Source: Candidatus Omnitrophota bacterium
Lineage (GTDB): Bacteria > Omnitrophota > Gorgyraeia > Gygaellales > Profunditerraquicolaceae
Length of the DNA: 64,000 bases
Assembly (NCBI GenBank): GCA_963805065.1
Contig: CAWDSS010000010.1
Location: forward strand, 407,059-471,058
Direction: 5' to 3'
A program made the position numbers and the translations under genes. Below, piece after piece: positions 14,271-64,000 of this stretch (its first letter is position 1; each line of letters opens with the position of its first letter). The notes under the pieces are model-generated. The model did not search any database and was not told where the DNA came from. It worked only from the letters and a program-made list of their open reading frames with translations.

Positions 14271-14282
14271 TTTTAAAATAAT

Positions 14283-14337: not shown

Positions 14338-14344
14338 ATTTTTT

Positions 14345-14392: not shown

Positions 14393-14394
14393 CT

Positions 14395-37586: not shown

Positions 37587-37640
37587 GGGGACGTTTCTAT
37601 TTTCCTCTGAACTGGAGACGTTAAAAATAGAAACGTCCCC
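37587..37640. repeat. palindromic intergenic repeat, copy B
   Basis: GGGGACGTTTCTATTTT-cctctgaactggagacgtt-AAAAATAGAAACGTCCCC, between the nrdJ start and the end of the LacI-family gene. Confidence 0.85.
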
Positions 37641-41513: not shown

Positions 41514-43223
41514 TTAATAGACGTCAACCAAATCAATGCTGCGGTCAAGGATACCGGAAGAAGAGACTATAACCAGGTTTATTTCTTTGGTGCCGGGTGA
41601 GAGATAGGATGCGTTAAACTTTGAGTTTTGGGAAGAAGGCTTCATTGAGCCTATATCACCTGACCAGAGGTATTGTAACTCTACTTGCATGCATCCGCTT
41701 TCCGGTAGATACGCACTGGCAGTAAAATTAGCCTCCTGACCTTTATTTAATCTGTAGGCTGAGGATTTTAAATCCGCTTTGGACATGTTAAAAACGGAAT
41801 TCTGTTTTAATGAAATGTCTAAAAATGTTTTGAGGTTATAATCAATGGGCTTACCTTGTTCAATTTCCTTTAACCTCTCTTTAGCTGATGAAACTGTGTC
41901 CGCAAAATTATCTGCAGCCTTATTTAGCAATTGATTATAAAACTCTTTTGCTTTCGTGTAATCCTCTTCCCACTGGCTAAGCAGGCCCAGCTGGTATAAA
42001 CTGGAAATTGCCTGAGGGCTTAAATCTTTTTCTTCCTTGGCCAATTGTTCAAAATATTGCCTGCCTGATTTTATATCTGCACCAATATAGGTGCTGATTA
42101 TGCCGGCTTTGAAAATTGCCTCATCGCGGTGAGGCGACTGTGTAAAATACTTGATTAAATCCAGATAAATATCCTTAGCCGAAGTATAATCCTTGGATTT
42201 TTCTAAGTTAAAGGCGCGCAAATACATTAGTTCCTGGCCAAAAGATTTCTTTCCACCCAGCTCTTCTATGTTTTTAAATAACTTTTCTGCGTAAGCAGGG
42301 TCATTTAACGCCTGGTCTTTGTAAGAAAACTTTTTAGCGGTATCTATGAGCAGTGGGATTGATTTTTCTTTTGGCAAGGACTTCAAGATCCTTGCAATAT
42401 AGGCATCGTAAAGGGTTTCACTTAAATCCAGGTTACCTTCCTGATAAAAGCTTGAGGCGCTTGCCAGGAGTTCATCGTCTTTCATTTCAGATGAAGCTAT
42501 TGCTTTAGCATAAATTTTGTACAGTTCTCTGGATTTTCCTTTTTCTTCATAAGCTAAAAGCCCGTCCGCAACATCCTTTATGGGTTTTAAATCCCTGGCC
42601 CCTTTGGCAAACTCTGAAGCCGCATTCATAAGGCCCGACAAAGATTCCTCTGCGAAAACATCCTGCTGGTTCTTGTGGAATTGCCAAATCAATAGCCGGC
42701 TGTAAAGATTAATCGGCTCGGTTTGAGATGTTTTGTCAATTGCGTTTTTGGCATCCAGCGTCAACTCTTCCCGGTAGTTGTTGCCTTGCGCAAAATATTC
42801 ATCCCAAAACTTGCTTTCCTCAAGATACTTAAGCTGTTTGAAACGGGTTAAGGCAATATAGTAATTTATAAAAGGCGTAGCTACCTGATTCTTTTGCACC
42901 AAAGATTTCAAGAAATCTACGAATTCGGAATATTTATTATCCTTATAATAAAGACTGCTTAATTCTTCAAACGGCGCACGCAGCGAGTCATTGGTCTTTG
43001 ATTCAATAATCTCCTTGCTTAATGTAACTAATCTATTGTTGTCGTCTTGAGCAAGAACTGAATGACAAATACCAAAGCACAAATGACAAATGACAAATGT
43101 TAAAATAATGGGGACGTTTCTATTTTTCTGCTGATTGGGAGACGTTAAAAATAGAAACGTCCCCATTTTTTTGACCATAGACCATTGGCCCTTCAATGTT
43201 GCTTGAATTTTCAATTTTATCAT
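41514..43223 (-). CDS. secreted TPR-like repeat protein (5' end uncertain: the ORF reads through palindromic repeat copy C and a heptamer array)
   Basis: 569-aa ORF; signal-peptide h-region ILTFVICHLCFGICHSVLA|QDD; helical TPR-like repeats; beta-rich C-terminus. The ATG at 43221-23 overlaps the stop of the upstream gene (ATGA). Confidence 0.5.
   Translation of the reverse strand: MIKLKIQATLKGQWSMVKKMGTFLFLTSPNQQKNRNVPIILTFVICHLCFGICHSVLAQDDNNRLVTLSKEIIESKTNDSLRAPFEELSSLYYKDNKYSEFVDFLKSLVQKNQVATPFINYYIALTRFKQLKYLEESKFWDEYFAQGNNYREELTLDAKNAIDKTSQTEPINLYSRLLIWQFHKNQQDVFAEESLSGLMNAASEFAKGARDLKPIKDVADGLLAYEEKGKSRELYKIYAKAIASSEMKDDELLASASSFYQEGNLDLSETLYDAYIARILKSLPKEKSIPLLIDTAKKFSYKDQALNDPAYAEKLFKNIEELGGKKSFGQELMYLRAFNLEKSKDYTSAKDIYLDLIKYFTQSPHRDEAIFKAGIISTYIGADIKSGRQYFEQLAKEEKDLSPQAISSLYQLGLLSQWEEDYTKAKEFYNQLLNKAADNFADTVSSAKERLKEIEQGKPIDYNLKTFLDISLKQNSVFNMSKADLKSSAYRLNKGQEANFTASAYLPESGCMQVELQYLWSGDIGSMKPSSQNSKFNASYLSPGTKEINLVIVSSSGILDRSIDLVDVY
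43058..43100. repeat. heptanucleotide tandem array (CAAATGA)x3 plus degenerate units
   Basis: gaatgacaaataccaaagcacaaatgacaaatgacaaatg. Confidence 0.7.
43110..43164. repeat. palindromic repeat, copy C
   Basis: GGGGACGTTTCTATTTTT-ctgctgattgggagacgtt-AAAAATAGAAACGTCCCC. Confidence 0.85.
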
Positions 43224-44575
43224 TTGTTTTTTACCTTCCCTTTACTCTTGTTATTTAACACCGGGTTCTTCCAGAATTCCCTCAATACATAATACGCCTT
43301 GCGGGGAGTGCGTTTATTAATGCCGTTTTCCAGTTCTTCCGACAGCGCGGCTATCCCGAACCACTCCTCGTTCATATTCATATTATTGGGCGCTTTTATA
43401 TCAAAATAATAACTGCCGTTGGACCAGCCTGCTTCTGTATCATGTATCTTCCAGCCTTCCGGATTATCTTGATTGTGTTTCCACCATTCATCCGTCCATT
43501 CAAAAGTTGTGCCGCCTATGCAGTTACCAACACCAGTTTTAGTGTTATACAAATTTTCGTAAATCTGGCGCCACTGCCACTCAAGGAAAAATGCCTGCAT
43601 GTTCTGGTCTTCTTTTTTTAAATACGCGTCGTACGCATCAGCGCCGAATTCCGATAAGAGAATTGGCTTATCAAAAGTTGCTTTCAGGGAATTAAACAAA
43701 TTCCCGAAGGTTTTCCCCCGGTAAATTATGCAGGCGACTAAATCTACTTGGGGTGCGAATTTATTGGCGAATTCAAGCCCGATTAATTCTCCGTTGCCTA
43801 AGGCAACGGGATGGTTAGGGTCGATTTTATGAATTTCTCCTGCCAGCTCGTTTACATATGAATAGTAAATTTCTGCCTTCATTGCCTTTTGTTTCTGGGG
43901 GTCTGTTTCCTTGTCTATTTCATCTGTTGACCAACGGTTAACCATCCCTAAGCAGGAATAATTGTTTTCATTGCCCAAAATCCAAAGCAATACTCCCGGC
44001 TCATCTTTATAGAGGCTGACCATATTCAACACGTCTTTTTTAACTTTATCCTGAAATGCCTTATCTCCGTAAAATGGGCAGGGATATTCCCAAAACCCCA
44101 GCCAGTTTCCCAAAATAGTGCGTATGCCGTAAATTTCATAAAAATCTTTAATTACTTTTTTTACTGCCTCGGGATTTTCTCCTGGCTGATAAATCCTTAT
44201 CGTGTTTACGCCCATTTCTTTCATTAATTTTCCATCAACCAGCCAGGGCTTATTGGGATCAGACCACCAGTCATATTCATGATTTTGCCCGATGGGGATA
44301 GGGCTGTAACAGACGCCTTTTACAATGTAGGGCTTTTGGTTTACGATTAGTTGGTAATGGCTGTTTTTGAGTTTTTTTATGAAGACGGCAGGCAGAGGCC
44401 TGGAAGCCATGCCTGAAAGGCAGGTTAAAAAGAAAATGGCACAAGGCACAAGGCTCAGGGCACAAAGTAAACCTTTGGCCCTGAACCCTGGATCCTGAAT
44501 CTTGAATCGTTTAATAATTTTATTCGTACTTAATCTCATCCAGATAGAAAGTTGCGCCTTCCGGATTGTTATCAA
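43220..44575 (-). CDS. GH2-like clan GH-A TIM-barrel glycoside hydrolase (WxLGNE acid/base and LSEFG nucleophile-type motifs), secreted
   Basis: 451-aa ORF; VLLWILGNENNY and PILLSEFGADAY. The 5' leader is encoded by heptamer arrays; an alternative start, MASRPLP, lies at about 44410. Confidence 0.55.
   Translation of the reverse strand: MITIRKAQLSIWMRLSTNKIIKRFKIQDPGFRAKGLLCALSLVPCAIFFLTCLSGMASRPLPAVFIKKLKNSHYQLIVNQKPYIVKGVCYSPIPIGQNHEYDWWSDPNKPWLVDGKLMKEMGVNTIRIYQPGENPEAVKKVIKDFYEIYGIRTILGNWLGFWEYPCPFYGDKAFQDKVKKDVLNMVSLYKDEPGVLLWILGNENNYSCLGMVNRWSTDEIDKETDPQKQKAMKAEIYYSYVNELAGEIHKIDPNHPVALGNGELIGLEFANKFAPQVDLVACIIYRGKTFGNLFNSLKATFDKPILLSEFGADAYDAYLKKEDQNMQAFFLEWQWRQIYENLYNTKTGVGNCIGGTTFEWTDEWWKHNQDNPEGWKIHDTEAGWSNGSYYFDIKAPNNMNMNEEWFGIAALSEELENGINKRTPRKAYYVLREFWKNPVLNNKSKGKVKNK
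44438..44506. repeat. two adjacent heptanucleotide tandem arrays, (GGCACAA)x4 and (CCTGAAT-like)x4
   Basis: ggcacaaggcacaaggctcagggcacaa ... ccctgaaccctggatcctgaatcttgaa. Confidence 0.75.
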
Positions 44576-45719: not shown

Positions 45720-45736
45720 TTCTACACCCCCCTTTT

Positions 45737-45924
45737 TAAAAAGTTAAAACTAAAAAGTAAAAACTCAAAACTGTAACTCAAAACTTAAAAGTTTTGAGCT
45801 TTACGTTGCAGTTTTGCGTTTTGCATTTTACGTTTTGCGTTTTTTACCGCCTCCTTTCTACTTTCCTACTTTTTTACTTTTTGCTTTTAAATTTTTTTAC
45901 TTTTTGCTTTTTACTTTTTACTTC
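45737..45924. repeat. long AT-rich heptamer-periodic tract: A-rich half (AAAAGTA-like units), then T-rich half (GTTTTGC/TACTTTT units)
   Basis: aaaaagttaaaactaaaaagtaaaaactcaaaactg...gttttgcgttttgcattttacgttttgcg...tactttttgcttttaaatttttttactttttgctttttactttttact. Confidence 0.6.
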
Positions 45925-48371
45925 CAGAGTTTCTTATACAAGTAATAAGACTTGCGTAATTGCCTTAAAAACGGGCTTAATTTTCCGTCACCCTGGCCGC
46001 AAATTCCCAGCCACTCCTCATGCATATAACCGTCGGGAAACGGCCCGGTAAATAATCCTTTTGTATCATGCGTGTATGGCTCATAAGCCTTCCACCATTC
46101 ATCCAGCCATTCAAACGCCACTGCGCCGATAGAGTTTCCCGCACCGGTGTGAAATGCCATGTTGTTTTCAATATCCTCCCAGGAGCCCTGATGATACACT
46201 GCCTGGGCTTCTTCAGCCTCATCCAGGGAACTGCCTTCTGCGTATGCAGGGCAGCCATACTCTGTAATAAACACCGGCACATCTGCTTCTTCTCTTACGC
46301 TTTTCCAAAGCCTGCCAAAACCATACTCTCCCCGATAGGCGTTAGTGCCGAAAATATCAATATCAGGCGCATCTTTGCCGAATTTATCCAGGAATAATAT
46401 GTCGCCGCTACAAATTGCTACAGGATGTTCGGGGTCAATTTCTTTAATGTGGTTTGCCACTTCATTTGCGAATTTAAAAAATGCGTCGGGTTCCTTATTG
46501 GCATTACAGGCATAGCCGTAAACATTTTCATTACCCAGGAGCCAGAATAATATGTAGGGTTCATCTTTAAATTCCAGAACCATGTTAGTCACTGACTCCA
46601 TCATGTTTTTCTTTTGCTCTTCATTAGTATAATCTGTGCCCGGGCTCCAGGGTGCGCCTGAACCCAAAGCATATTTACCCAGGAAATCGCCCATAATTAC
46701 CATTATCCCGTAATTATCGTAAAGGTCGCGCATAATTTCCTTATGCATTTTATAAGGGTGGTGATAAATCCTTAGGGCATTTACACCCATTTCTTTCATT
46801 AGCCTGAAATCTCCTACTGCGGGTTCGTCTTTATCCTGCAGATTATTTCTGTTTTTATCCACGAAAGCATCATACGGACCGTCTGCCTTGCCGTTCTTAT
46901 TAAAATCATCCTCCATCCAGTTAGTCATTGTCCCGTTATCCGGAGATTCCCCTACTTTTGTGGGAGCATAAGTCAGGCCCTTGATGACAAACGGCTTATT
47001 ATTAACCAGCAATTCCCAGTCGCCGGTTTCATATTGCACTAAATGCACCCTGCCTTTACCGCGCCTCTTTTTTATGCTCAAAAGGTCTTTAGAGGGTTTT
47101 GGCTTGAATTTATCAAGAATACCGATTTTCACAAACCTGCCCGGGTTAGTAATTGTTATATCATTAGAAACGTCATTATCATAACCATTGATTATTCGGA
47201 TATCCGCATCTACTAATTTGTATCCCAACTGCGGATTCTTATGCAGTAAATAATTTATCTTGGCAATTGCTGCTTGGCCAACATACCAGGGCGTATGCCA
47301 ATAAGTCCAGCCGTAACTCCCCGGGTAATGCACTACAATTGCATAATAACATTTAATCGCATGTTTAATTAGGCCGGATTTTTCCAAAAACAAGGCGGTA
47401 TAAAATAATTTTACTCCCTCTGGCTCAGGCGCATTAGCCCATTTTAAAAACCCTGCTTCCAAATCAGGGGAATGTACAAAATCCCAGTGCGAGCCTTCCA
47501 GCCGCTTTTGTTTCATGGCTGTTTTAAATTCAGGATCCCAGCGCACAGAGCTGGAATTGGGATAAATCCCCTCGCCTACCGCCTGAATCAGGCCTTCCTG
47601 ATCGGTAACCACATATTTATAATCCTTAGTCCCTACGTTTTCAAACTTTCCGTATTTCCCATAATCTACAACATCTTCCTTGCCGGGATCATAGAGGACT
47701 ATTTTTGTGGGCAGCTGGCTTACTTTTATTTTTACTGTTTCTTCAGGCATTGTGCCCGGGCAGGGCGCAGGCAATTTTTCATTGGGATTTAATTTAAGTA
47801 TACTTTCTCTGGCAGCCCTGGCAACAGACCAAAACCAGCCTCTAGGGTCCCAGGCTTGCGCAAAACAATATTTTTCCACCACTACTTTAAAGGCCTTAAT
47901 GGACTCTTCTTTCTTTCCCTGATCCCTGTAAGATTCGCCTTGAATAAAATGCGCTGTGGCAACGTCATTTAATTCTCCCACAGCTTCAATATCCGGCCTG
48001 TTCTTAGGCAGGGATTTTAATGACGCCTGTTCTTTCTCTGCTTGAGGAGTATACAAATCTATTAACTGCTGGGTGTATTTGAAGGTTTCTTCTATGTTCT
48101 TTTTTCCATGGGCATTCCAGGATTTAACGATAAGCTCGCCGGATGTAGGTTTGTCTTGAGCGAATAAGTAGCGACATGTACTAAAACAAAAAATAAGCGA
48201 TAAACAAATAATACATAGGTCGATAGTCGATAGTCGATAGTCGATAGTTTTGAAAGAAAAGGGGACGTTTCTATTTTTAAATAAATAACATAACGTAGTA
48301 AAAATAGAAACGTCCCCTTTTCTTTTAGACCATAGACCCTTAGATTTATTTTTTCTATTTATTTTTTTCAT
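45918..48371 (-). CDS. large secreted GH2-like clan GH-A glycoside hydrolase (N-terminal extra domains plus a C-terminal TIM barrel paralogous to 43220..44575)
   Basis: 817-aa ORF; ILFWLLGNENVYGY and VPVFITEYGCPAY; signal-peptide h-region IDLCIICLSLIFCFSTCRYLFA|QDKP. The leader reads through palindromic repeat D and (GTCGATA)x4. Confidence 0.55.
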   Translation of the reverse strand: MKKINRKNKSKGLWSKRKGDVSIFTTLCYLFKNRNVPFSFKTIDYRLSTIDLCIICLSLIFCFSTCRYLFAQDKPTSGELIVKSWNAHGKKNIEETFKYTQQLIDLYTPQAEKEQASLKSLPKNRPDIEAVGELNDVATAHFIQGESYRDQGKKEESIKAFKVVVEKYCFAQAWDPRGWFWSVARAARESILKLNPNEKLPAPCPGTMPEETVKIKVSQLPTKIVLYDPGKEDVVDYGKYGKFENVGTKDYKYVVTDQEGLIQAVGEGIYPNSSSVRWDPEFKTAMKQKRLEGSHWDFVHSPDLEAGFLKWANAPEPEGVKLFYTALFLEKSGLIKHAIKCYYAIVVHYPGSYGWTYWHTPWYVGQAAIAKINYLLHKNPQLGYKLVDADIRIINGYDNDVSNDITITNPGRFVKIGILDKFKPKPSKDLLSIKKRRGKGRVHLVQYETGDWELLVNNKPFVIKGLTYAPTKVGESPDNGTMTNWMEDDFNKNGKADGPYDAFVDKNRNNLQDKDEPAVGDFRLMKEMGVNALRIYHHPYKMHKEIMRDLYDNYGIMVIMGDFLGKYALGSGAPWSPGTDYTNEEQKKNMMESVTNMVLEFKDEPYILFWLLGNENVYGYACNANKEPDAFFKFANEVANHIKEIDPEHPVAICSGDILFLDKFGKDAPDIDIFGTNAYRGEYGFGRLWKSVREEADVPVFITEYGCPAYAEGSSLDEAEEAQAVYHQGSWEDIENNMAFHTGAGNSIGAVAFEWLDEWWKAYEPYTHDTKGLFTGPFPDGYMHEEWLGICGQGDGKLSPFLRQLRKSYYLYKKLWK
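48219..48246. repeat. heptanucleotide tandem array (GTCGATA)x4, perfect
   Basis: gtcgatagtcgatagtcgatagtcgata. Confidence 0.85.
48257..48322. repeat. palindromic repeat, copy D (extended-arm variant AAAAGGGGACGTTTCTATTTTT / AAAAATAGAAACGTCCCCTTTTC)
   Basis: Loop aaataaataacataacgtagt. Confidence 0.85.
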
Positions 48372-48377
48372 TGAACT

Positions 48378-49226: not shown

Positions 49227-49232
49227 ATGTTT

Positions 49233-50159: not shown

Positions 50160-50168
50160 AACTCAAAG

Positions 50169-50232
50169 AAAAGGGGACGTTTCTATTTTTAACGTTTCCT
50201 AATCAGAAGAAAAATAGAAACGTCCCCTTTTC
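50169..50232. repeat. palindromic repeat, copy E (extended-arm variant), itself nested inside a 12-bp outer inverted repeat
   Basis: Loop aacgtttcctaatcagaag; outer CAAATGACAAAA (50143-54) / TTTTGTCATTTG (50279-90). Confidence 0.85.
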
Positions 50233-50295
50233 TTTGGTTGTCGAATTACTTAGATTAAGGGATTTATTTTGACGTTGGGATTTTGTCATTTGTTA

Positions 50296-51594: not shown

Positions 51595-51726
51595 GTTTCT
51601 TTTGCTCCTTTCCCTAAAGATTTGAACTTAAAGTATACCACCTAAACACCGCCAAATCAAGGTTGTCAAATTAAATTGAATAAATCTAACATAAGTTTAA
51701 AGGCGGGTCAAGATTTTTATTGGGCT

Positions 51727-52431
51727 TTATATCGCTCTTAACACGCGAGATAAACCCATAAGATCGGCCTTTTCCAGGTTAACGCCTACCTTGTACTTAT
51801 TGGTATCCACCATTTTTGACCAGACTACTTCACCTCTGGTGTACAGCGGCTCGCCCTTATCAGGAATTTCAAGCCACATTTCCAAAGCAGTCCTGGGGTG
51901 TAATTGCTCATTTGCCGAGATACCAATACCTTTAGCGCTGACATCTTCAATTGAAGCCTGGCTCTCTTTATTTTCTCTAAGGTTTATAAACTTCACGGGA
52001 AAAGTCGCATTAAACCTGTCAAAAATCCTGCGGTCTTGAAATTTTTCTTCTTCCATTGTCTCACCCCCTTCAGGTATTGTGTCTTTCCACCATTGGTTAT
52101 TTACCAGACGAGGAAAATTGCTGCGCATAAACTTATAGATTGTTTCCTTATCCCCGTCCTTAATCTTATTGAAGCAAACGCCATGGATGTTGACGCTGCC
52201 TATTGTTTTATGCCAGGCTACCCACGCTTCTATATTTATAGCAGAAACGTCAGATAAAACAATAGTTAATTTCACAAACTCATCTTTCGGTAACTTCATC
52301 TGCAAAGCAAGGTTACAACCCAAGAAACTGATATCGCCCACAGTGCAGTCCGCGCAATTTTCAGCTCCCTGAAGCTTCACCTTAAGCTCTTTGTTTATTT
52401 TCCACCTCGCACAACGCCTTCGCCCTGTCAT
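51727..52431 (-). CDS. tandem PilZ-domain protein (two c-di-GMP-binding PilZ modules)
   Basis: 234 aa; module 1 RRRCAR ... DISFLG; module 2 RRIFDR ... DVSAKG (RxxxR plus D-x-S-x-x-G signatures); the ATG overlaps the stop of the giant ORF (ATGA). Confidence 0.65.
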
Positions 52432-55400
52432 CTCACTCCTTTCTGTGGCTGGTAATAGGTTAAGTTTATATTAGGTAAAACAGCGGCATTAGCATGCAAG
52501 CCGCTATTGACAATCGGCAATAAAGTTCCATCTGTGAAATGCGAATTGTCAGCTGTGAATTGAATTGGTGAACTAGAATATTTCTCTTCCCAAACTCGAT
52601 CAACAAACTGAACTAGCCTGTTTATCGCATTCATATGCGAATAAAGGTATTGGTTTAACTTTGAAAATTCAACTTTATGCCGTGGATCAATAAACAACTG
52701 AGCTACTAATTCTGCGGCATCCTGACCAAATTCGTTTCTTGTAGAATCGTATGTGTATATAATATATTCTAAAATTCTGTAGGTATCTTCAGCCATAAGT
52801 TGCTTTGCAAAACCTAAAAGTTGTCGATCCAACGTGCCCTTGAAATGGCCATAAACTTGATAGATCCATATCTTGTCAAGCTGAATCAAATTTGTGAAAG
52901 AAATTGCTCCTGCTGTAGCCTGCGGCAATTCAGCCAAACTCAAAAACTCATTATATAATTCCTCCGGAACGAATCCCAAATTAACAATAGCAATATTAGT
53001 ACCGGAAAGTAAAGCAGGGCTATATTCTCCTTTGATTAAATCAATATAACGAATTCCGTATTTCTTCACTGTTTCTCGTAACGAATTAGATTCCGACCAA
53101 TCGTTAGACCTTCCGAAAGTAAAGAGAGTTACGTCTCTTTCTTTAAGATGAACTGCACTCTCTTTGGCTTGCGCAATAATCTGCAGGAACTGAACAAGAT
53201 GCTTCCAGGTAAATTCTTGGTAATAGGTCGTCCACAATGAACTAGCTATGCTATTTTTATCAAATGGCAGGGTTTTTAGCAATTGTCTCATCTTTAACTT
53301 TTCTAGGAAACACGCTTTGGCTTGTTGATTATCTTGAGATTTATCATTTTGCTCTTTTTTAACAAGCTCGGGGTTAAAGTATAAGCCAACGCCATTGCTA
53401 AAAAGGCCAGCTTCCAAATAAAAAGTCTCTGCATCCCTTGCCCCTCTAAGAGGAGAATGATAATCATCAACAATAATCTTTAAACGCCCTCCTAATCCAA
53501 AAGGAATATCATGATTAAACGAGACGATAAGATCAACCGGTGAAATTTGTTGCCGTTCCTTTTCGCTTGGATATTGAATAAACAAAAGACCGTCATTCTC
53601 AAAATAATCCCCAAAAGTCCTCTCCCGTCCAAAAAGAATCCTTTGAGCCTGACAAAACCCCCAATAGCTTAAATAGATTTGAATCGCTGCCTGCGGATAA
53701 AATTGTTTTATTGTCCGAGCAAGATTAAGGACAACGCCCGCATCTCCGTACCCTTGATCTTCCTCCGTAGACGGTAACGCAACGAGCCTTACAGACCTAA
53801 TTTCATCTTTGGCGACACTCCGAACCATTTTTACTTTTTTACCCTTCGCTCCCTTTTTTATCACCGGCGAGGCGGCGCGTTTTTCGGTTCTAGGTGTTAG
53901 GTTTTTGGTTATTGAGCTAGAACCAACAGACACCGGCGAAGAGACAAAACTTATACTCTGTTTGGCTACCTGGAAAGCTTTTTCCACATCAAGAAAAGCC
54001 GAGCCTTTATCGTCAATTTCAATTTCAAAACTATTTGAAAACACATCGAGAAGTTGCTCTATTTCTCCAGAAGTTAACTTCTCTGTAAGAAGATACGAAA
54101 AAACTTCACTTATATATTCGCCAAAAGCTGAAACAAAAACTCTATGGTTGTCAGTTGAAACAGTATCTTTATAAATAATAAGCTTATACCAGCGCTGGGC
54201 GATATACCTTAAAAGCTCTAAGTTTGAGACGTATTGCTCTAAATCTTCCTGTGCGAATGCCCAGGCAAGAGGAACGCCGTAATATAGAGTTTTACAGGGT
54301 GGCATATTTTCTGAAAGAAACTGCTCGCCGAATTTCAGCGTCGTTACAAAAACGTCGTCTTTTTTAACAAACAATTTTTTCAACATGGGTATCAATACTG
54401 TTTCTGCAAAATCAGTGAGAGTTTTTGATTTATTTAAATGGGCGATGAAGTCCTCTGTCGCCCGGTCAACACTTGAAAACAACCATTCCTTTTTCTCAAG
54501 GCGCTCTTGGACCTTCGGATCATAAAGTTTCCAAAGACGCACATAACTGTTAACGCGTCCATTAACCCTATAGTCTTCATAGAGCTCTAAAACCCGGGCA
54601 ATCGGCTCGCAGAAACCGTTAGGGTTAACGCTATCATTTAGGAGTTGTGTAAAAAACTTATCAATCTGCTTTCTATAAGCTAAGAGGATTCCGCAAAATA
54701 TTTCAAGCGGCTCAAAATTTTCACCAAGTTTCTCTAAGACATAGCTGGCATTATAATAGCCCTCAGGCGCAACCTCTAGGCCATCCAAATCAATGACAGA
54801 CGCATAATAGTAGCCATTTTTATGTAAAGCATAAGCATTATCTTCATGCGGATCGCGTAAAAATAACCCTTTGTTAAAGACGCGCCATAAATGAAGATAC
54901 ATGGCTACTTTCAGGCTGTTTTTCTCGAAAGAATTTAGATCCTCTGTTTCTTTGAGGTATTGCTCTGTCATAATGATGCGTTCTTTTTGAGTCCCGGGCT
55001 CATAGATAGTATAAGTCATTCCATACCAAGGATGATAATCTAAATCATATTTATGAAGCCTGTCGACCACGCAATCCATGAGGAAAGTAAAGTTAGAATT
55101 ATATTCATAGCCATCCAGCGTCTTTGTAACATACTCCCGGACGACCTTAAAAACAATGGGATACTGCCGTCTGCTTTCACCCTCTCCATACTCCAGAGTC
55201 ATTCTAAAGAGGCGCTTATAGTTACCACTGTCGTCAATGAGTTTAACCTCTTTGATTTCTATATCTTGGGGCCTAGCATGAATCTTAAAATTGATTCTAA
55301 ACGTATCAATCTTAAAATCAGGCTCTTCAGCTACCGCATAAAGCAAAGCCACATCCCTGAGATATCCTTTGCCATAACGCTCTAAGTTCTCATGTAGGGC

Positions 55401-58400
55401 TTCAAAAAATGCTTTCTGCTCTCTAGGAGAAAGGCCTTCCTCAAAAAATTCCCCCTGCTCTTTAAAGGTTCGCGTTAACAATCTTTGTTCGATCTCTTCG
55501 ACATTGTCAACATTCATGCTATAGAATTCTTTCGGATGGCCTGGTTTACAAATAGCCTTGGCGAATGCATTCAAATTGGAATCTTTAAAATTAAATTTAA
55601 CCGGCGAGCTAACCGTGTCTTCTGCACCATTTTTGCTGGTTCGGAATGCCGCCGCGAATCTTCCCAAGGAAAATTGATCACCAAAAAGATTACCGCCTGC
55701 TCTGTATCTGCGATAAATATCCAATACTTCGGCTGTCGAATAACAAAATCCGCTTGGATTAATAGCATCAGAAATCATTTTTTCAAAGAACTTCTCATAT
55801 TGATGGCCGTAAGCTAAAAGGATTCCGTAGAATACTTCAAGAGGCTCGAAATTATCCCCAAGTTTTTCAAGAACATGACTTGCATCAAAATCTGATTCGT
55901 AGCCCACTTCCAAACCGTCTAAATCTATCATCAAAGGATAATATTGGCCTTCCTTTTCAATAATCATCACATTCTCATTATGGGGAACACGAACAAATAG
56001 CCATCCTTCAAAAATCCTCCAGAAAATAAGATAGAGCGACACCTTTAAACTGTTCATCTCGAGCGCTCCTAAATCCTGAGTCTCATCCAAATATTGTTCT
56101 GTTAAAATCAAGCGTTCACGACCAACCAAAGGATCATAAAGAACATGGGTTGTCCCATATTTAGCATGAAAAGCGGGATTATATTTTTGAATCTTATCAA
56201 TAATGCAATTTACGACGTTCACAAATTCAAAATTATAGGGGTATCCGTTAAGAGTTCTTAATTTTTCGTCTCTAACAACCTTGAGAACTATAGGGCATAA
56301 TGCACCGCTTATTCTATCTTCCAAAATTAACTTAAAAACCCTTTTGAAAGTGCCGCCATCATTTAAGAAACTCAGTTCTCTCACGGCGATATCTTTGGGG
56401 GCCGCTATAATATCAGAAAACTTTTCTGAGCCATCTTTCTTAAAACCGCCTTTTTGGATCATGGAATAAATCAAGGCTACATCTTTAATTAAACTCTCGC
56501 CGCAACATTGTGCACGCCCTGTTTTTAGAACCTCCATAAAAACTTTTTGCTCTCCAAAGGAAAGCAGGCTTTCCCTAAATTCTTCATTAACCAAAGCTTG
56601 AATATCAGCAAGGAATCTATCCGGCTGAAGATTAATTGTTTCTTTAGCATGAGTAGTTATACAAAAAGATTTTGCAAAATCATTCATTGCCTGATCTTCA
56701 AAATTATATTCTATCCCTTTGTAGTTAGAATTTTTGTTGAAAGATAAACCGATTAGATTGTTTTTGACCGGCGAGCTGGATTCGGCTCCTTCATTTTTAG
56801 GCATCGGTCCCTCGGCTTGCAGCCTCGGGACTCCCTCGCCTCTCATTGGGCTCGTGCTCGGTCGCGAGGCGGCGCCTTCGTTAGTTCTCAGTTTCCGGTT
56901 TCTAGTTTTCAGATTATGATTCTCAACTAACAACGGACAACTGACAACAGACAACTGCAAAGCCGGCGAGGCGGCGTGGGGATTTTTTCCTGCCGGAGAG
57001 CTGCCAGATTTAGTATCTTCAGCCCACGCTTCTTGAACTTTCTTGATTCCCGAGAGGTCTTCTAATTTTTCCTTAAGCCTTGAGAGTTCTATTTCCTTAT
57101 CTACTTCTAACAACAAACCGTCAAGCTTCTGGATTATCCCAAACAAATCAACTTCAGGAAAAACCATTTCTTTTAAAATTGAAAGCAATTTTTTTCTTCG
57201 TAATTGCTTATCCGGTAATTCAGCTCCCGCTGCCGGTGAGCTAGAGAACAGCTGCCTGTTTATCTTAAGGCGTTCTGCAAGCTCTCTGGCCATCTGCCAA
57301 CGCCATTCCTGCCTATTTTGAGTCCCTTTATAGAAGAAACCTGTTATAGTAGTCCCTCTTTCTTTCTCGCTATCCATCGATAACAAAATCTCATAGCGCG
57401 GAATACATAAAATTTTAGCTATACCAACATATTTAGAAACAATCACCACGCTTTCTCTGACATGTTCTATGACAGAAACATCGGAATATTTACCTACGCT
57501 ACGAGTCAATCCCTCTCCTGCCCATCCCCCAATTCCGTTTTCCCTGTGCCATTCAACAGCCCTTTCGATAGGGATAAGCCGTCTTCTCTTATCACGGAAG
57601 CCCAATCCTGCATCATGAATGGATATTAAAACAAAATCATCAACCTCGCAGCGCACGATTAAACCCAGAGATCTCTTTGCGTGCTGGTTAGTGTTTTCCA
57701 CAGAGCACGCAGTAAATTCATTTTCATCGCCCCTTATCTTTCCCTTAGTGATAACCGGGATTGTTTTTGTTAAATTAAAATAATCATCCCGGAGGCTACA
57801 TTTGTAATCCAAGCCATCTATTTTACGGCTACTCATGGCAGCCCCAATAATCCATGTATCCATTCCTTCAAGCGCCTTCAATTCGTTTTTGACCACAATA
57901 AACTCTTTCAAATCTTTTTTGGGATTCAAAGCCATCCTCATAAAATTTCTTGCTTTTGGCACAAAAGAAAACACCCTCTCGTCTATCACCGATGAGCTTG
58001 CTTTAAGCGTAGTCGAAGGGAATAGTTGGACCTTTGGCGAGGCGGCGCATTCAGGCGAAGCAGGGTTTTTATCGAGAGGGGAACAGGATTGACTAGTTGT
58101 TTCTTTTTTCTCAAGTGAATTCACGCCAACAAACGAGTAGTACATATGCTCAGCATCCTCAATAGGCGTTTCAAGGATTCTTTCTTTCAAAGATGCGATA
58201 TACCTTGCGTCATCTTTTCTTTGCAGAATTTCTGCGGCTTCTTGTGCTTTATTTTCTCTGCCTAATTCGATGCTTTTAGCAAAAGTATATAAAATATCTT
58301 TTCCGTTTTTACCAAGCTTTCTTTCGATAAGATCCAGCCTCCCGTTAATAAAAGCCTCCCACAGCACTGGTAATCCTACGTGCTGTGATAATAAATCTAT

Positions 58401-61400
58401 AGCCTCTATAAGCCAGGCATGCCTGTAACGGGTTGAGAATTCCCTGCATTGGTTAAGTAAACTCAAAACCAGATAATCCACTAACGCAAGTTCAAAAAAC
58501 CTGAATTCCGATTCGCAAAAACCATCGAATAAGAGGCAAAGCGCTTCTCTCATTAGATACGGCTCTAAATCTAGCCCCTCAAATGAACTGCCATCGTTAT
58601 TCCAGCGAGAAGCAAGAATACGAGCTTGATAAGGTACTCGTATCACTATGCCATTAGACAAATGGCTCACAAACAAAACAATATGAGACAAGTCAATCGT
58701 GGAATTAAACGCCTGAGAAAGCCTATGAGAAACATTCCTTACGCTTTGTTTTTGAGCTTCATTTGGCTCTGTAATGTGACGTTGTGCCACTCTAAAGTAG
58801 GAAGCAAAAATGACCTTTTCCACATAAAATGCCATAATAAAGGCATTTTCTCTTTCGGCTTTATAATTATTTCTTGTTTTGCTGCGTTTTTCAAACCCCT
58901 TGATAAAATTCAAAATTGAAAACATATCTCTTTTGCGCAGATGACGAAACGCCTCTATGAGACCTGCTTTTGCAGCCTCAGGAGCCTCAACTTTATTTAT
59001 AATTTGTCGTATCCCCGTGCGATATAAATAATCTATATACCTTGCATCAGGAGATAAGTCATTGATATTGTAAGCGTTACCCGCAACAACGATACAACCA
59101 TCTCCGAAAGGAATATCAGCCCAGTCTGCCTCATCATAGCGAACAGTAAAAGAGAAAATGGTTTCCTTATCAAAGGTCATTCTTGCAAAATAGCGCTTAT
59201 CTTTCAGGTCATCGGGAACTAACCTCTTCATTACTACGGAATCCTGCCACTTCTCTTTAAATAAATTACTGTGGAGCCTTACATTAAGGTCTTGCTCACC
59301 AGGAATATTGGCAAAAATGAAGTTTTCTTCACCCACTAAATTAGCCTGTACTGTTCCCGAATAGGGGAAAAATCTTTTTTCCTCCAACAGAGCTAATAAA
59401 TCCAGGTAATCTCCTAGTTTCTGATTTTGAATAGCGGTTATCACTCTCTCAAAGTATGAGAAATCAGGAACCTTCTCAAGGAAAGTATTAAATCTAAATC
59501 CGCAAAGGTGCTCATATAAACCTTTACTTATTAATATGCCCATAATGTTATGTGCAGCACGAAGAGTTTTTACATTACCCTCAGCTATACGCATCAAATC
59601 AGGCAATATATAAACTTCATAATTATCAACGTTAGGGAACCGTTTGTAAAAATCAGCGATTAAATCTGGAACAGCATCTAAGATAGAAAGATTATAAGCA
59701 TATCTAAGCCATTCCCATCTTCGATCATAAAATCTATCGAGGTCGCGCTCAAGAAGGAGTAAACGATAAATTCTTTCTACAGCTTCTTCTTTATAAGGCC
59801 TTAATTGCTCTGGGCAATTATCATTAAATAATTGTTCGGCGGTTTCCCATTGCTTCCACTCTCTCTTCATTGATTTTAAGACAAGGCGGATAGAAGATAT
59901 TTCTTTATCTTTATTGAGTTTATCTACCCATATATGATTTACGCCTAAAGACTCTCTCTGCGGATTAACAGAAGTCAAAAGTTGACTGAAAAACCAGATG
60001 GCTTCAGGATGATATTTATCCTTCATATGAGGAATCGCCCATTCTATCATGATATCAATAAATGGTTTTTTGTTGATGTCGCCCAATATAGAATCGAAAG
60101 TGGGCTTTTCTTCATATGCATCATGATCATTGGTAAGAACGAGAGATTCAAGAGTAATAGTAAGGTTTATATTTCCTGGTTTGTTATGCGAGATTAATTC
60201 TTGGGCATCGAACTTTCTAGCCTCTTTGGTACTGAATTCGGCTGCTCCTCCTTGTGCGATTATTGAATTCACATTAAACCGCTCAGGATACTTCTTGTAT
60301 TGAGCAGTTAAGCCATATCGTTTTAGAATAGAGGTTAACTCAGCGGTACGATTAAGTGGAGGGAGCTTTATGTTATAGTTAATTTTCTCCGGAAAATATT
60401 TTTCTAGTATGCTTACCAAAACAGGCAAACTTCTGCCCCGTTTTTTAAATACTCCTTCGTGGTTAGAATCAAGAGAAATCACTAATATCACGTTAGAAGC
60501 AATCTGAGCCATAAAATGCTCAAGCTCTGTTTCTTCTGTAGGTAGAAAGAACCCACTGGTAACCACGTAAACTTTATCTATATTAGCGGCGATAAAATTA
60601 ACTATTTTAAGAAAATCAGGATACAACGTAGGCTCGCCTCCCAGCAACCGGACACTTGAAAATCCCCGTATGTCTTCGCTAATAAGTTTTTTGAGTTTCT
60701 CACAAGGAAAAATAGCACCCGGATTATGCTTCATAGCTTTTTCTGCACAGCAAAATGGACAGCCCAAACCACACCTGAAAGTCATTATAAGATTAATGTG
60801 ATCTTCAAAATCCAAGAAAGTGCGCAAAAGATCATATGTTATTGCAAATCGATATTCAGAATGTAATATCCTGTCTAGGATATCTTGCATTGTCTCAAAG
60901 CGCTTCCTTTCTTTATCCTCCATCACCGGCGAGGCGGCGCGGGGATTATTTTGCACTGGAGAACCGGATTCTTCAAAAACCTTACATAAGTTTATGATTT
61001 CGGTTGACCCCCAAAAATCAACCTTTTCAATTTCAATATTCGGTGATCCTAACTTTTCATTAACATATTTCTCGGGGTTGGCAAAAACTCCGGGCTTAGA
61101 AGGATCATGGCTTTTTAGAATAACAGCCAAACATCCATCGGGCGTAATACAAAGGCTTGAGTAGAACGGCTCTTGTTCTCTTTCAAAACGACTTCGCTCT
61201 AAAAGACCTAACTTTAATGCCATGGAAAACGCGCGTCCTTCATAAAAGATACCATGGATATTCTGCTTTAAATTGATCTCAAATTCTTCTCCCAAGGGAA
61301 CCCAAACCAACTCTCTTGTCAAGTTATTGAACGACTCTTTCAATGCATTACCACGTACACTAAAAGGCTGCAGTTCTCCTAATTCCCAAATAATCAGGTG

Positions 61401-63956
61401 GTCTTGCATTGAATCATTTTTGTAAGATAAAGGTAAGAATTGAATTATATCACGATATCTACTGTAGTATGACACTAACAGCTTTCTAAAATCTTCTGAA
61501 TCAACCCCACCATGTCTCATGACTGCTTGTATAACATCCGGATAAAACAAATGAAAACTAAAATATGGCCATTGTGAAGAATTTTCCACAGGATTAAGGG
61601 ATTGAAAGACTTTTTCAAGAATATCCCTATTATTCTGATTAATAAGTTTCTTGGCATTAATAACCAAATCTTTTCTCACTGGAAATCTAGGCAATAACTG
61701 AGAGATAATATAAGCTAAATCACGACGATTTAAAGCATCTGAATCAAGTCTAGTTCCTATTTTTAATGCAGGCCATTTATTAGTTATCGAAAATATTAGT
61801 AATCTGAATAATTTAGGTGACATCTGTTTTACGGGTCCCATAGCATCAAACAGACAATGTTCACATGCATCATTACAACCCCATGTGAACAAAATTCCTA
61901 TCTCTTTGTGGTTTTTGAGCCATAATTCAACAATCATTTGAAATTTTTTTGTAAAGCAGGGAAATGAATTGTTTATGAAATTTTCAATCGTAGGCGAGGC
62001 GGCGCGGGGTTTTTCTCCCACTGGCGAGCTGGATCGAGTCTCAAGATCACCATAAAGATCATAAATAAGCCTCTTTTCAGCATCGCCTAATATTTCATAG
62101 GCGGTTGCAGCCTCTTTAAATATTTTTTCGGCTTCTTTGTTGTTAGGGTTACGATCAGGATGAAACTTCAAAGCTATGGCTCGATATGCCTTTTTGATCT
62201 CTTCCCGCGTAGCATCAGGTTTAACCCCAAGAGTCTTGTAAAACTTAAGCGACTTATTATAACCATTGACGCTGTTAAGAGAATTGTAAGACAATGCATT
62301 GATATACCGCGGGAGCTCCGAATAGCTATCGTCTGTAAGAATATATCCTATTTCTCTTAAGTAAATAACAATTGAATAAGCGGTATCATAAATATTCTTT
62401 CCTTGAGGTTGAATAATCCAAGTCTTGAGGATCATAGGGTTATCGTGGCAGACAAAAGCGACCTCTATAAACCTCTCTCCTGGCCTGCCAGGACCTTCAT
62501 TTTTCACGCGTATATCAAGGACGCCTTCTTGGTAAGGTATTTGGACAATATCTGCTTCTGGGCGGCCAATACTGTTTGTATCAGAGGCCCGAACTACACT
62601 CTTTTCCAAGCCGCCCGAGCTGCTCAAGCCTCCTTTCAATACATTCTCCATCCTATCGCATGATTTTGTTGGTTCAGCTTCCTGATGCATTTGATCAAGC
62701 AGCGCCAAATCATAAGACTCCACAGCTTCAGAGTTGAATACCAGTAATCTCTTCCCGTCTACAGAGAAGAAAGGCTTATCTTTTTCCCCCAGCTTAAGTG
62801 CAATTTTTTTGCCATTGATAGTAGTACAAATCAAATTAATGACTTTTGTCAAACCGTCATATATATGCAGATAGCTCCCACACGCAGAATAATAAGTATT
62901 GAGCAATGCGCCACGCGTATTCAAAGGAACGATTTTTGCGTTATCCACATGATAGATGGCACAGCTAGGATCAACATCCCAGTTTATTTTGTTAATGTCA
63001 TAACAAAGAAGTGTACTGTCAAGTGTTGGTGATATAGAAAATTGATAGAGATTGGGGGCGATAAAAGTCCTTTCTTTTGTTTTGAAATTATACACTTCTG
63101 CTGAACCACACAAACTGATAAATAGCGAATCTGGAATAGCTATAAAATTAGCAAAACTCGTGCCTTGGGGGATAAGAAATATTTTCCTAGTTTCAAACTC
63201 ATAAATTACTTTCTCTTTATTGTCCAAGCGCAAGATGGCAAATTTTTCATCTTTGGGAAAAACATGAATAAACGGCAATCTCCCCGGCTGCACTTGGGAT
63301 AAATCAACTTCAAGGCCTGTCTTTAGATCAAACAGGCTGCTATTATAATCTTCTTTAAACATTACAATGGCGTATCCATCTTGCCCTGAAATATGGACAT
63401 GAGACACTTGACCTTCGAAATTTATATTTAAAACTTCTCTTTTTTCGATATCGATTATTTGCACGGTGTCATTAGGGAAATAAACAGGTATCAAACTACC
63501 GCTTCTTGAAAATGTACCAAACATACTGGCTCCCTTATGCAATCCCTTAATTTCTAAAACCCTTCCCGATTCTATATTGATTATTTCCGGTGAAAACAGT
63601 TTGCCGCGGTAGTCGATCGCCAGATACATATCCTTTGGCGAAAAATTAGCGCTCAAAACATCTGTTTTTAACGATAGCTCAACGATCTTTCCAGATGCAA
63701 CTTCATACAGCTTCTCATCAACAAAAGCAAACTTTCCTTTCCTAGATATGAAATTACTATGTGCATAGTGATAGTGATCCATATTATATGCATTGAATCC
63801 CGGAAGGCGCATTCCTTGTGTCTCAAGAGGAGAACTACTAAGCCTCGGCGAGGCGGCGCGGTTAAAATCGGTCGATAGTCCATAGTCTATAGGCGATAGT
63901 GAAAGTCCCGTGTCCTGACCATTGACCATAGACCATTGACCATAGACTGATTTCAC
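52428..63956 (-). CDS. giant multidomain protein (3842 aa or more; the ORF remains open upstream of the GTG start and continues past the window edge)
   Basis: Uninterrupted 11.5-kb ORF; domains are listed as separate features below. Confidence 0.8.
54657..55364 (-). other. giant protein: atypical protein-kinase-like module 2 (internal duplicate of module 1)
   Basis: PIVFKVVRE ... MTEQYL ... LRDPHEDN ... VIDLDGLEV (IDLD at 54783..54794); DPHxxN resembles the catalytic loops of ABC1/UbiB- and APH-type kinases. Confidence 0.5.
55782..56504 (-). other. giant protein: atypical protein-kinase-like module 1
   Basis: PIVLKVVRD ... LTEQYL ... VRVPHNEN ... MIDLDGLEV (IDLD at about 55917..55928). Confidence 0.45.
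56925..56959. repeat. heptanucleotide tandem array (CAACTAA CAACGGA CAACTGA CAACAGA CAACTGC) inside the giant ORF
   Basis: Encodes ...[13 protein letters not shown]... within a low-complexity linker. Confidence 0.7.
57387..57689 (-). other. giant protein: GHKL/histidine-kinase-like ATPase region
   Basis: [12 protein letters not shown] (DxGxG, about 57597..57626) ... [10 protein letters not shown] (G2-like); extent approximate. Confidence 0.4.
60087..60809 (-). other. giant protein: radical-SAM domain 2
   Basis: [18 protein letters not shown] (CxxxCxxC at 60750..60773) and [15 protein letters not shown] (GGEP at 60630..60641). Confidence 0.65.
61257..61904 (-). other. giant protein: radical-SAM-like domain 1
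   Basis: [15 protein letters not shown] (CxxxCxxC at about 61854..61877); extent approximate. Confidence 0.5.
62052..62246 (-). other. giant protein: DnaJ J-domain
   Basis: [62 protein letters not shown], with the HPD tripeptide. Confidence 0.8.
62397..63779 (-). other. giant protein: beta-propeller-like repeat region (WD40/PD40-like)
   Basis: Repeating ~40-aa units with (I/V)xxxD and YD/FD strand motifs; extent approximate. Confidence 0.35.
63883..63950. repeat. heptanucleotide tandem arrays (GTCGATA/GTCCATA/GTCTATA ... GACCATT GACCATA x2) inside the 5' end of the giant ORF
   Basis: gtcgatagtccatagtctataggcgatag...gaccattgaccatagaccattgaccatagactgat encodes [31 protein letters not shown]. 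Confidence 0.75.
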
Positions 63957-64000
63957 CGGAGAGGCGGCGCCTTCGTTAGCTTTCGGCCCAAGACGTACAG

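Follow-up and report, generated by a model that had tools for sequence, protein, structure and literature searches.

Short tandem repeats of bacteria include those of contingency loci, such as the CTCTT repeats of Neisseria opa genes, which lie in the leader-peptide region, and the 7-bp repeats that precede the Haemophilus hmw genes, and the short tandemly repeated repetitive (STRR) sequences of cyanobacteria, for which Mazel et al. reportedly defined in 1990 the units CCCCA(A/G)T (STRR1), TTGGTCA (STRR2) and CAACAGT (STRR3). Among dispersed repeats, the Rickettsia palindromic elements (RPE), of 100-150 nt, insert in frame into protein-coding genes. Heptamers are reported to outnumber every other class of long simple repeats in most prokaryotic genomes that are rich in repeats (PMC4679880, PMC4692102, citing Mrazek 2007); they are described there in Burkholderia, Xanthomonas, Beggiatoaceae and Bacteroidetes, and as strongly over-represented in the intergenic DNA of Xanthomonas and Nostoc, with an interaction with DNA polymerase that favours slippage as the proposed cause (PMC4679880, PMC4692102). 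Arrays of TAACTGA adjoin start codons in marine Beggiatoaceae, some cyanobacteria and five Bacteroidetes; one unit dominates the genome (169 sets), strains differ by indels in 7-nt steps, and cold-shock proteins have been discussed as binders, one per heptamer (PMC4679880). The 7-bp STRR repeats form hairpins between hupS and hupL, for which a role in stability or coupling was proposed (PMC2670836). Here we describe heptanucleotide arrays, and a family of palindromic hairpins, in 64,000 nt of DNA from Candidatus Omnitrophota (assembly GCA_963805065.1, contig CAWDSS010000010.1, positions 407,059-471,058; hereafter the window). The arrays belong to the known heptamer simple-repeat kind, and since such repeats had already been described for many bacteria, being the top class of long repeats in most repeat-rich prokaryotes (PMC4679880, PMC4692102), an initial annotation that called them unusual outside heterocystous cyanobacteria was overstated. 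No report of heptamer or REP-type (repetitive extragenic palindromic) repeats in Omnitrophota was found in the literature searched.

Tandem Repeats Finder (TRF), run across the window, detected period-7 arrays at each site named in the initial annotation, all of them at, or within about 12 bases of, the positions given there (the last pair begins about 12 bases earlier; Table 1). A strict scan returned five arrays of period 7, where 30 dinucleotide shuffles gave none, and it detected no array at periods 8-15; a relaxed scan returned 11 versus a shuffle mean of 0.25 (maximum 1), with a total of three for periods 8-15; and strictly intergenic DNA, shuffled alone, gave four period-7 arrays where 0.05 were expected. 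Because all these scans exceeded the shuffles, period 7 is specifically enriched in the window. The strict 7-bp period combined with differing units was borne out by TRF and the shuffle scans, as was the presence of arrays in both coding and non-coding DNA. The GTCGATA array was base-for-base identical in an independent Logan contig (L001), and the arrays of related species were identical between independent JGI and ENA assemblies, so the arrays are not an assembly artefact. Perfect arrays are mixed with arrays that are about 75% degenerate, in the window as in its relatives, a mixture that fits continual birth and decay of arrays. The perfect ones include 43079-43099, 48219-48248 and 63916-63947 of the window, 7335-7367 of L072 and 7569-7648 of L075. 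Perfect two-unit heptamers were found at eight loci of the window (3.6 expected), with no unit at two loci, and recurring unit families were visible only with longer, mismatch-tolerant words: GACCATAGACC and CAAATGACAAA each recur at three loci and GTCGATAGTC at two, in every case well beyond chance. One 11-mer is common to the GACCATA/GACCATT-type sites at 43173, 48328 and 63924.

The comparison was extended to seven syntenic loci of related Omnitrophota (L066, L068 and L071-L075; 178.5 kb with the window) and to 64 loci anchored on the hairpin described below (L002-L065; 470 kb from 16 other Omnitrophota genomes). All seven syntenic loci carried 7-nt arrays (some 8-nt), mostly with unrelated units, so that the sequence of the unit turns over between species. 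Over the 178.5 kb, 26 arrays had period 7, six had period 8 and no other period had more than one, in agreement with an enrichment of period 7 over other periods. Arrays spanned 14-64 kb of the window and recurred in the syntenic loci of at least six related species; as they were present in the syntenic and in the hairpin-anchored loci, the phenomenon extends beyond this locus. Period 7 was also the commonest in the 470-kb set, at a density of about 0.02 per kb versus about 0.17 per kb in the window, and array density is strongly variable between species. The lineage-specific repeat-generating or repair process suggested in the initial annotation was not demonstrated, the period bias being general among bacteria and only the density lineage-specific.

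The arrays were unevenly distributed with respect to genes. Intergenic DNA, 6.9% of the 178.5 kb, held 20 of the 32 period-7/8 arrays (2.2 expected), and the first 50 codons of genes held eight (3.3 expected). The remaining 83% of the DNA held four (26.5 expected), all of them in the linkers of a giant open reading frame (ORF), and conserved domain-coding sequence of the 178.5 kb held none of the 32.

From their open frames, several arrays that would pass as intergenic are predicted to encode signal peptides of secreted glycosidases, tetratricopeptide repeat (TPR) proteins and solute-binding proteins. In a TPR protein, the hydrophobic core of the signal peptide (..FVICHLCFGICHSVLAQD) is encoded by the array at 43061-43099, and the end of this peptide, LCFGICHSVFAQD, is kept in the aligned orthologs. 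A 7-periodic coding core, TTTGTGC TTTGGNN TTTGTCA TTCAG, is common to the window and L071, and upstream of it a different resident heptamer is expanded in each of the two; in the window, the three perfect CAAATGA units are a locally expanded part of this conserved coding sequence with its period of 7. The GGCACAA/CCTGAAT pair translates as the charged n-region RFKIQDPGFRAKG and the hydrophobic h-region LLCALSLVPCAIFFLTCLSG of the signal peptide of a GH5-like glycosidase (start ATG at 44539), the orthologs of which align with ordinary signal peptides at the matching place, and the GTCGATA array lies in frame within an N-terminal extension of a GH2-type glycosidase ORF (ATG at 48371), directly before the hydrophobic signal-peptide core. 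The arrays of the related species occupied comparable positions (Table 1), and the n- and h-regions that they encode likewise aligned with ordinary signal peptides of orthologs.

Among the non-coding arrays, the tract at 14336-14394 has TAA in every frame and directly adjoins the hairpin at 14283-14337. The pair of inverted arms at 32636-32742 makes up the entire spacer between the phosphoglycerate mutase gene and mnmG, two neighbours identified by Pfam, and folds as a single long hairpin (-30 kcal/mol, z = -4.3). The tract at 45737-45924 is the non-coding leader of a gene for a 399-aa protein and ends at its Shine-Dalgarno sequence, and its outer arms pair as a long hairpin (z = -4.3). Related species carry other heptamers at the leader position of this gene; L074 has the unit AAAACGC in common with the window. 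In L071, the (CAAATTC)n/(ATTTTGG)n hairpin at 14219-14294 sits right after a stop codon. Two further spacers of L071 (5675-5737 and 11150-11243, 5.5 kb apart) are inverted copies of one 8-mer-array module; both hold gttttccggttggcctgtttgccggttta and (AACCGGCT)n, and between them lies the region that starts with the permease genes and extends to the gene for a 382-aa protein.

The modules of the giant ORF are joined by linkers of the form ..SSPV-X(n)-(P)RAASP, and a single DNA word, GCCGCCTCGCC, which encodes AASP, is used throughout. All the array sites of these linkers, the weak tract at 53877-53913 included, are in frame, and the recurring word stands on either side of each. The arrays at 56881-56957 are bracketed by GCCGCCTCGCC and GCCGCCTCGCG, and about five CAACNGA units (56924-56957, TRF) lie among them, with CAACTGA as one variant only; those at 63871-63947 are bracketed by GCCGCCTCTCC and GCCGCCTCGCC, with a 17-nt spacer between them that resembles a degenerate hairpin arm. 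The 8-mer arrays in the giant-ORF ortholog of L071 are bracketed alike, by GCGCCTCGCCGCTGG. Short linkers have one copy of GCCGCCTCGCC and array-bearing linkers have two bracketing copies, like an empty versus a filled site. The orthologs were listed as 45,701 aa (L075 1-826, gene table), 5,115 aa (L071 1-3022) and 4,870 aa (L074 1-3703), lengths from which the size of the giant ORF varies about tenfold between related species.

A palindrome of 53-57 nt with 18-bp stem arms GGGGACGTTTCTATTTTT / AAAAATAGAAACGTCCCC, overlooked in the initial annotation, was found in five copies in the window (Table 1). Fold energies of the copies ranged from -31 to -42 kcal/mol, with z between -7.6 and -9.8. Exact matches were present at 64 loci in 16 Omnitrophota metagenome-assembled genomes (MAGs), the 18-nt arm being identical across 16 species-level genomes. 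The loops, of 16-25 nt, were unrelated between genomes and related within a genome; as they exceed the 8-nt limit of a consensus terminator scan, the hairpins are missed by it. Diverged copies showed compensatory double changes at stem positions 2, 8 and 18, including the ortholog of the 43110 hairpin in L066 (a T8G / A-to-C pair, with an unrelated loop), and the A/T flanks covaried, lengthening the stem by a mean of 4.3 pairs versus 1.4 with permuted partners. Intergenic DNA held 71 of 74 copies, mostly between same-strand genes and 2-20 nt after a stop codon. The copy at 48261-48317 lies in frame within the N-terminal extension of the glycosidase, and translations inferred from open frames would give KNRNVP in such extensions of the GH2-type glycosidase and TPR protein of the window and KNRTVP in the TPR ortholog of L066. 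The copy at 50173-50227 is flanked by inverted CAAATGACAAA words.

Six genes for REP-associated tyrosine transposases (RAYT) were detected in the relatives (NCBIfam NF047646, 71-88 bits, with the cut-off of 80 reached by four), one in L075 and the others in five of the 64 hairpin-anchored loci. Four of the latter five lay within 800 nt of a hairpin (estimated P ~0.007), and in L075 and L033 arm-like inverted repeats were present on both sides of the RAYT gene. The 64-kb window had no RAYT gene, and no GTAG tetranucleotide was found in the arm, which begins GGGGACG, or in its immediate flank. Judged from these sequence features, the hairpin would have the anatomy of a REPIN/REP-RAYT system (REPIN, REP doublet forming a hairpin), with an unusually well-conserved arm and without the classical GTAG. 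Viral contigs gave no match to the hairpin and thus no sign of a phage origin. No match in the window reached the Rfam gathering thresholds. When positions 43000-50300 were searched permissively, the only Rfam matches were to generic long-hairpin families (miRNA precursors and a plastid 3'UTR hairpin), all far below threshold, so that Rfam holds no family of this type.

Three of the five window hairpins were flanked by arrays within 10-15 nt. The stretches 48219-48340 and 63871-63947 both have the layout [GTCGATA]n - hairpin or arm - [GACCATW]n, the second of them with a degenerate arm, and the GACCATAGACC copies at 43173 and 48328 each lie 8-10 nt from the adjacent hairpin. What is new here is this hairpin family, which forms mosaics with three array sites. 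A general link between hairpins and heptamers outside the genome of the window was rejected, as none of the 10 heptamer arrays at the 64 loci of the 16 other genomes lay within 1.5 kb of a hairpin. The composite of hairpin and GACCATAGACC had no match in JGI metagenome contigs.

A second hairpin family, with arms CCCCGTTAGAAAC / GTTTCTAACGGGG, was observed in L066 (1942-1997) and L071 (6614-6670), and holds the TAGAAAC and CCCC blocks of the first family in swapped order. Its arm CCCCGTTAGAAA occurred once in the window, over a promoter-like site, which is at chance level. Many hairpins of the first family (L019, L024, L027, L029, L052, L053 and L057) were followed by a solo CGTCCCC or preceded by partial GGGGACGTTTCTA arms; with these extra pieces, which look like partial re-duplications of the arms, outer stems are nested around the hairpin.

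Table 1. Repeat arrays, hairpins and associated features of the window and arrays of syntenic loci in related Omnitrophota.
Locus	Feature	Coordinates	Strand	Basis
Window	AT-rich tract, 7-9-nt periodicity, (TAAAAAG/TTAAAAG/CCAAAAG...) on sense strand	14336..14394	-	TRF + sequence
Window	A-rich arm (AAAAGNN)n + inverted T-rich arm (CTTTTAC)n	32636..32742 (TRF 32638-32734)	-	TRF, sequence, fold
Window	AATGACA x5.6, sense (CATTTGT)n; perfect CAAATGA x3 at 43079-43099	43061..43099	-	TRF, ortholog alignment
Window	GACCATA GACCATT, 2 units, 8 nt from hairpin 43110-43164	43173..43192	+	sequence
Window	GGCACAA x4.0 (44438-44465) + CCTGAAT x4.1 (44480-44508)	44438..44508	-	TRF, translation
Window	(TAAAAAG)n, (AACGCAA)x5, inverted (GTTTTTA)n	45737..45924 (TRF 45737-45923)	-	TRF, sequence, fold
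Window	GTCGATA x4.3, 100% match	48219..48248	-	TRF, sequence, alignment
Window	TAGACCATAGACCC, ~2 GACCATA units, far side of hairpin 48261-48317 from GTCGATA array	48326..48340	+	sequence
Window	weak (ANAACCN)x5, third giant-ORF linker, between SSPV and RAASPV	53877..53913	-	direct reading, below TRF threshold
Window	(CAGTTGT-like)x5 + weaker (CTGAAAA-like)x4, giant-ORF linker, in frame	56881..56957	-	TRF, translation
Window	GTCGATA-like x4.3 (63871-63900) + GACCATW/TGACCAT x4.6 (63916-63947), giant-ORF linker, in frame	63871..63947	-	TRF, alignment
Window	giant ORF, >3842 aa, runs off window; DnaJ + radical-SAM domains	52428..64000	-	ORF + domain search
Window	GCCGCCTCGCC sites (n = 8)	53866, 56863, 56965, 58036, 60928, 61993, 63847, 63958	-	motif positions
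Window	REPIN-like hairpin, 19-nt loop	14283..14337	.	fold -32.8 kcal/mol, z = -7.6
Window	REPIN-like hairpin, one mismatch at stem top, between LacI-family and ribonucleotide reductase genes	37587..37640	.	sequence, fold
Window	REPIN-like hairpin at GH5-like/TPR gene junction	43110..43164	.	sequence, fold
Window	REPIN-like hairpin, 27-bp perfect stem, between GACCATA and GTCGATA arrays	48261..48317	.	fold -37.8 kcal/mol
Window	REPIN-like hairpin, 27-bp perfect stem, between solute-binding-protein gene and first ABC permease gene	50173..50227	.	sequence, fold
L066	(ACATTAA)x5, just upstream of Shine-Dalgarno sequence of 390-aa gene			
L068	8-mer array, glycosidase signal peptide, as in L075			
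L071	(AAATCAC)x4.4, (TAACCGGC)x4.5, (CAAATTC)n/(ATTTTGG)n hairpin			
L072	(CGAAGTA)x4.7, codons 2-12 of GH5-like gene			
L074	(ATTTTGC)x4.7, lipoprotein signal peptide of solute-binding protein			
L075	(CGTTATTT)x4.6 + (CTACCTA)x4.3, glycosidase signal peptide			

Set beside the known systems, the arrays come closest to the long simple sequence repeats (LSSR, 5-11-nt units), with which, as these are summarised in PMC4679880 and PMC4692102, they share the beyond-chance occurrence, the dominance of heptamers, the concentration in intergenic DNA, a density that varies by lineage and the proposed origin by slippage; they differ in that one array in three is translated, as part of a signal peptide or a linker, and in that period 8 forms a clear second class. 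With the cyanobacterial STRR they have in common tandem 7-bp units, several families per genome, positions between operon genes and some hairpins, but the arrays are short (3-9 units) and belong to another phylum. The STRR-likeness proposed in the initial annotation held for the 7-bp tandem units able to form hairpins, and failed for their sequence, no unit being equal to an STRR consensus. Against the consensus units as reported for STRR1-3, no unit matched exactly (6/7 at best), and four unit-target pairs had one mismatch or less versus 1.26 expected (P ~0.03, with units that are not independent). Identity with STRR or TAACTGA units was therefore rejected, the similarity being marginal, and since units and phylum differ, the arrays are not STRR in the strict sense. 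From the TAACTGA system they differ in that nearly each locus has its own unit, instead of one dominant unit. As in contingency loci, units that are not a multiple of 3 lie inside the signal-peptide-coding sequence of secreted or surface proteins, although the arrays are shorter and often imperfect.

The hairpin, in turn, resembles REP/REPIN-RAYT systems and the bacterial interspersed mosaic elements (BIME) of E. coli in its inverted conserved arms, less conserved spacer, extragenic location, multiple copies and combination with short motifs, as well as in its position after stop codons and between operon genes, like the malE-malF REP, and in the RAYT genes that lie nearby and are flanked by arm-like repeats. 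It departs from them in the absence of GTAG and in the identity of its 18-nt arm across 16 species-level genomes, REPs being usually species-specific. A palindromic repeat tolerated in frame inside ORFs (KNRNVP/KNRTVP) recalls the RPE, from which the present element differs in size (55 nt versus 100-150 nt) and in that the translation of the N-terminal extensions is deduced from open frames.

The reading that we consider probable is that the arrays are long simple-sequence repeats generated by slippage-type tandem duplication with a bias for 7 nt, and filtered by selection. Heptamers resident at a site would be duplicated in tandem by replication slippage, with a 7-nt (occasionally 8-nt) bias as in many bacteria, and selection would remove the arrays from constrained sequence, leaving them in spacers, in the first ~50 codons of secreted-protein genes and in giant-ORF linkers. 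T-rich heptamers at gene 5' ends would supply hydrophobic or charged signal-peptide residues whichever of the three frames is read, and inverted A-rich/T-rich pairs in spacers would let the transcript fold as a long hairpin, like the STRR between hupS and hupL. A minority of arrays would be mutual copies that travel with the REP/REPIN-like hairpin and give BIME-like mosaic modules. Two origins, local expansion and dispersal, seem visible in the window.

Several observations count against this reading. No slippage event was seen directly, and near-identical contigs from different samples (99.93-99.99% identity; L066/L067 and L068/L069/L070) showed no indel, a clear array being present only in L066/L067. 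The recurrence of GACCATAGACC, GTCGATAGTC and CAAATGACAAA at separate loci means that not every array is an independent local birth; some arrays may have been retained or selected, as AAAACGC at the orthologous site in the window and L074 would suggest; and the repeated presence of signal-peptide arrays across species could reflect selection for switchability instead of mere tolerance. The preference for 7 nt is left unexplained by the data presented here.

Other searches for length variation gave similar results. Clusters at 90% identity of five array-bearing proteins were singletons or of equal length, with no variant alleles; neither a flank-anchored pattern across the GTCGATA array nor the hairpin-GACCATAGACC composite had a match in JGI metagenome contigs, which thus yielded no second allele; and an exact look-up of the 399-aa protein returned no record. 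Translated arrays tended to four full units (9/12 versus 9/20 of the intergenic ones), a difference that was not significant (P = 0.15). The Logan contig L001 (ERR10755942) corresponds to positions 48219-50179 of the window; one of its ends is the last base of the pure GTCGATA tract and the other lies 7 nt into the hairpin at 50173-50227, so that both coincide with repeats. These ends may be assembly-graph branches caused by heterogeneity, or simply repeat-induced breaks. Taken together, the polymorphism searches neither support nor exclude slippage.

Among the alternatives, the arrays might act at the RNA level as cis elements that rely on 7-nt phasing and not on unit sequence, a minor possibility that is compatible with generation by slippage. 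OB-fold proteins (cold-shock proteins, or ribosomal protein S1) would load on leader arrays, or inverted-array hairpins would set mRNA stability, attenuation or translational coupling. In the window, L066, L072, L074 and L075, the leader arrays of the 399-aa gene do end within a few bases of its Shine-Dalgarno sequence, and the inverted pairs fold significantly better than shuffles, one of them after a stop codon (L071 14219-14294); the binding of heptamers by CspB together with TAACTGA arrays beside start codons (PMC4679880), and a role of STRR hairpins in stability or coupling (PMC2670836), have been put forward elsewhere. Yet a sequence-specific factor does not fit units that differ by locus and species; many of the arrays are translated or have no pairing partner; and at equivalent junctions L068, L073 and L074 have overlapping genes without a spacer, the elements therefore being dispensable. 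It is quite unlikely, on the other hand, that the arrays were not made in place at all, but were spread by a RAYT-type transposase as a mobile mosaic of REPIN hairpin and flanking heptamers. The array-flanked hairpins, the twofold [GTCGATA]n-arm-[GACCATW]n layout, GACCATAGACC beside two hairpins, the inverted modules of L071 and the RAYT genes of the relatives would fit such a mosaic, whereas the lack of any array near the 64 hairpins of the 470-kb set, the missing hairpin-GACCATAGACC composite in JGI contigs, the absence of a RAYT gene from the window, and the fact that most arrays, in the window and in its relatives, have no nearby hairpin and have units unique to their locus, do not. Chance low-complexity sequence or assembly artefact, for which the shortness of the arrays (21-70 nt) and the AT-richness of some could be invoked, is refuted for practical purposes, given 5-11 arrays where shuffles gave 0-0.25, the enrichment of period 7 only, and the agreement of independent assemblies.

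That the arrays are contingency loci, in which gain or loss of a unit switches a secreted glycosidase, a binding protein or the giant protein on or off, seems unlikely to us. As 7 and 8 are not multiples of 3, a change by one unit shifts the reading frame, and the unit length and the 5' coding position are both those of such a switch. In at least six species, orthologous genes for secreted proteins carry arrays of unrelated units within their first ~30 codons, and several of these arrays are perfect with 4-5 copies; those deep in coding sequence are all in giant-ORF linkers; the tendency of translated arrays to four units fits a frame-preserving gain of three; and the end of L001 at the pure GTCGATA tract is what an assembly-graph branch would give. 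Against this stand the lack of significance of the copy-number trend, the absence of indels between near-identical contigs and of variant alleles in the five protein clusters, and the many arrays that are only ~75-80% regular, with lower slippage rates expected from them; moreover, 20 of the 32 arrays are non-coding, and coding sequence is in any case least constrained in signal peptides and linkers. A bolder version, to which we would give little credence, holds that the heptamer and octamer arrays are actively maintained frameshift switches and coding raw material in an ultra-small, probably host-dependent clade, repeatedly rebuilding the signal peptides of secreted glycosidases and binding proteins and, together with an in-frame REPIN hairpin, providing stop-free linkers by which neighbouring genes are joined into giant ORFs. 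If true, slippage by one unit would toggle secreted proteins, or the downstream parts of giant proteins.

The host could be placed from its repeats and its genes. Exact hairpin arms were found only in Candidatus Omnitrophota MAGs, a few of them labelled Planctomycetales or Aminicenantes. Homologs of the 399-aa protein (44520-45719) numbered over 3000; identity was 73-87% for the best 120, among which the named organisms were nearly all Omnitrophica/Omnitrophota, with one Margulisiibacteriota. The contigs that bear the homologs keep the gene order of the window, which runs giant ORF, PilZ, sugar ABC transporter, GH2-type glycosidase, 399-aa protein, GH5-like glycosidase, TPR protein, ROK regulator, coiled-coil protein, LacI-family regulator, ribonucleotide reductase and phosphoglycerate mutase. 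Because the hairpin distribution, the homologs and the gene order agree, the window is placed in Omnitrophota, in a species that shares ~87% identity with its nearest sequenced relatives in a very conserved protein. Candidatus Omnitrophota MAGs are the source of the hairpin, of the homologous proteins and of the syntenic loci alike, in accordance with the initial view that the host is not cyanobacterial. All genes of the window are on the minus strand, and its G+C content is ~41%.

The 399-aa protein is secreted (minus strand), has no Pfam domain, and has heptamer arrays in its leader in five of eight species; this protein may be one of the main constituents of the envelope. Upstream of the 390-aa gene, several species have the motif GGTAGAAAGGAGG (window ~45855-45870, L066 ~2005-2020, L068 ~4450-4465), which in L075 also stands before small ORFs (1320-1345, 2075-2096 and 2525-2545) and may be an extended ribosome-binding or leader motif. 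The large subunit of ribonucleotide reductase (34039-37563, minus strand) has 1174 aa versus 762-766 aa in L068, L072 and L073; inside the window protein there is an intein with a LAGLIDADG domain, and the orthologs of L071 and L075 are likewise intein-bearing.

These observations extend the heptamer-repeat phenomenon to Omnitrophota, an uncultured phylum. In at least six species the arrays code for parts of signal peptides and of giant-protein linkers, a concrete case of simple repeats supplying low-constraint coding sequence. Gene starts and "intergenic" annotation around these elements are likely to be unreliable. Since repeat length can be counted in existing reads, the arrays offer a cheap handle on possible phase variation in unculturable organisms, and the REPIN-like hairpin, with its identical 18-nt arm and RAYT genes nearby, is a marker for mobile-element dynamics and operon punctuation in the phylum.

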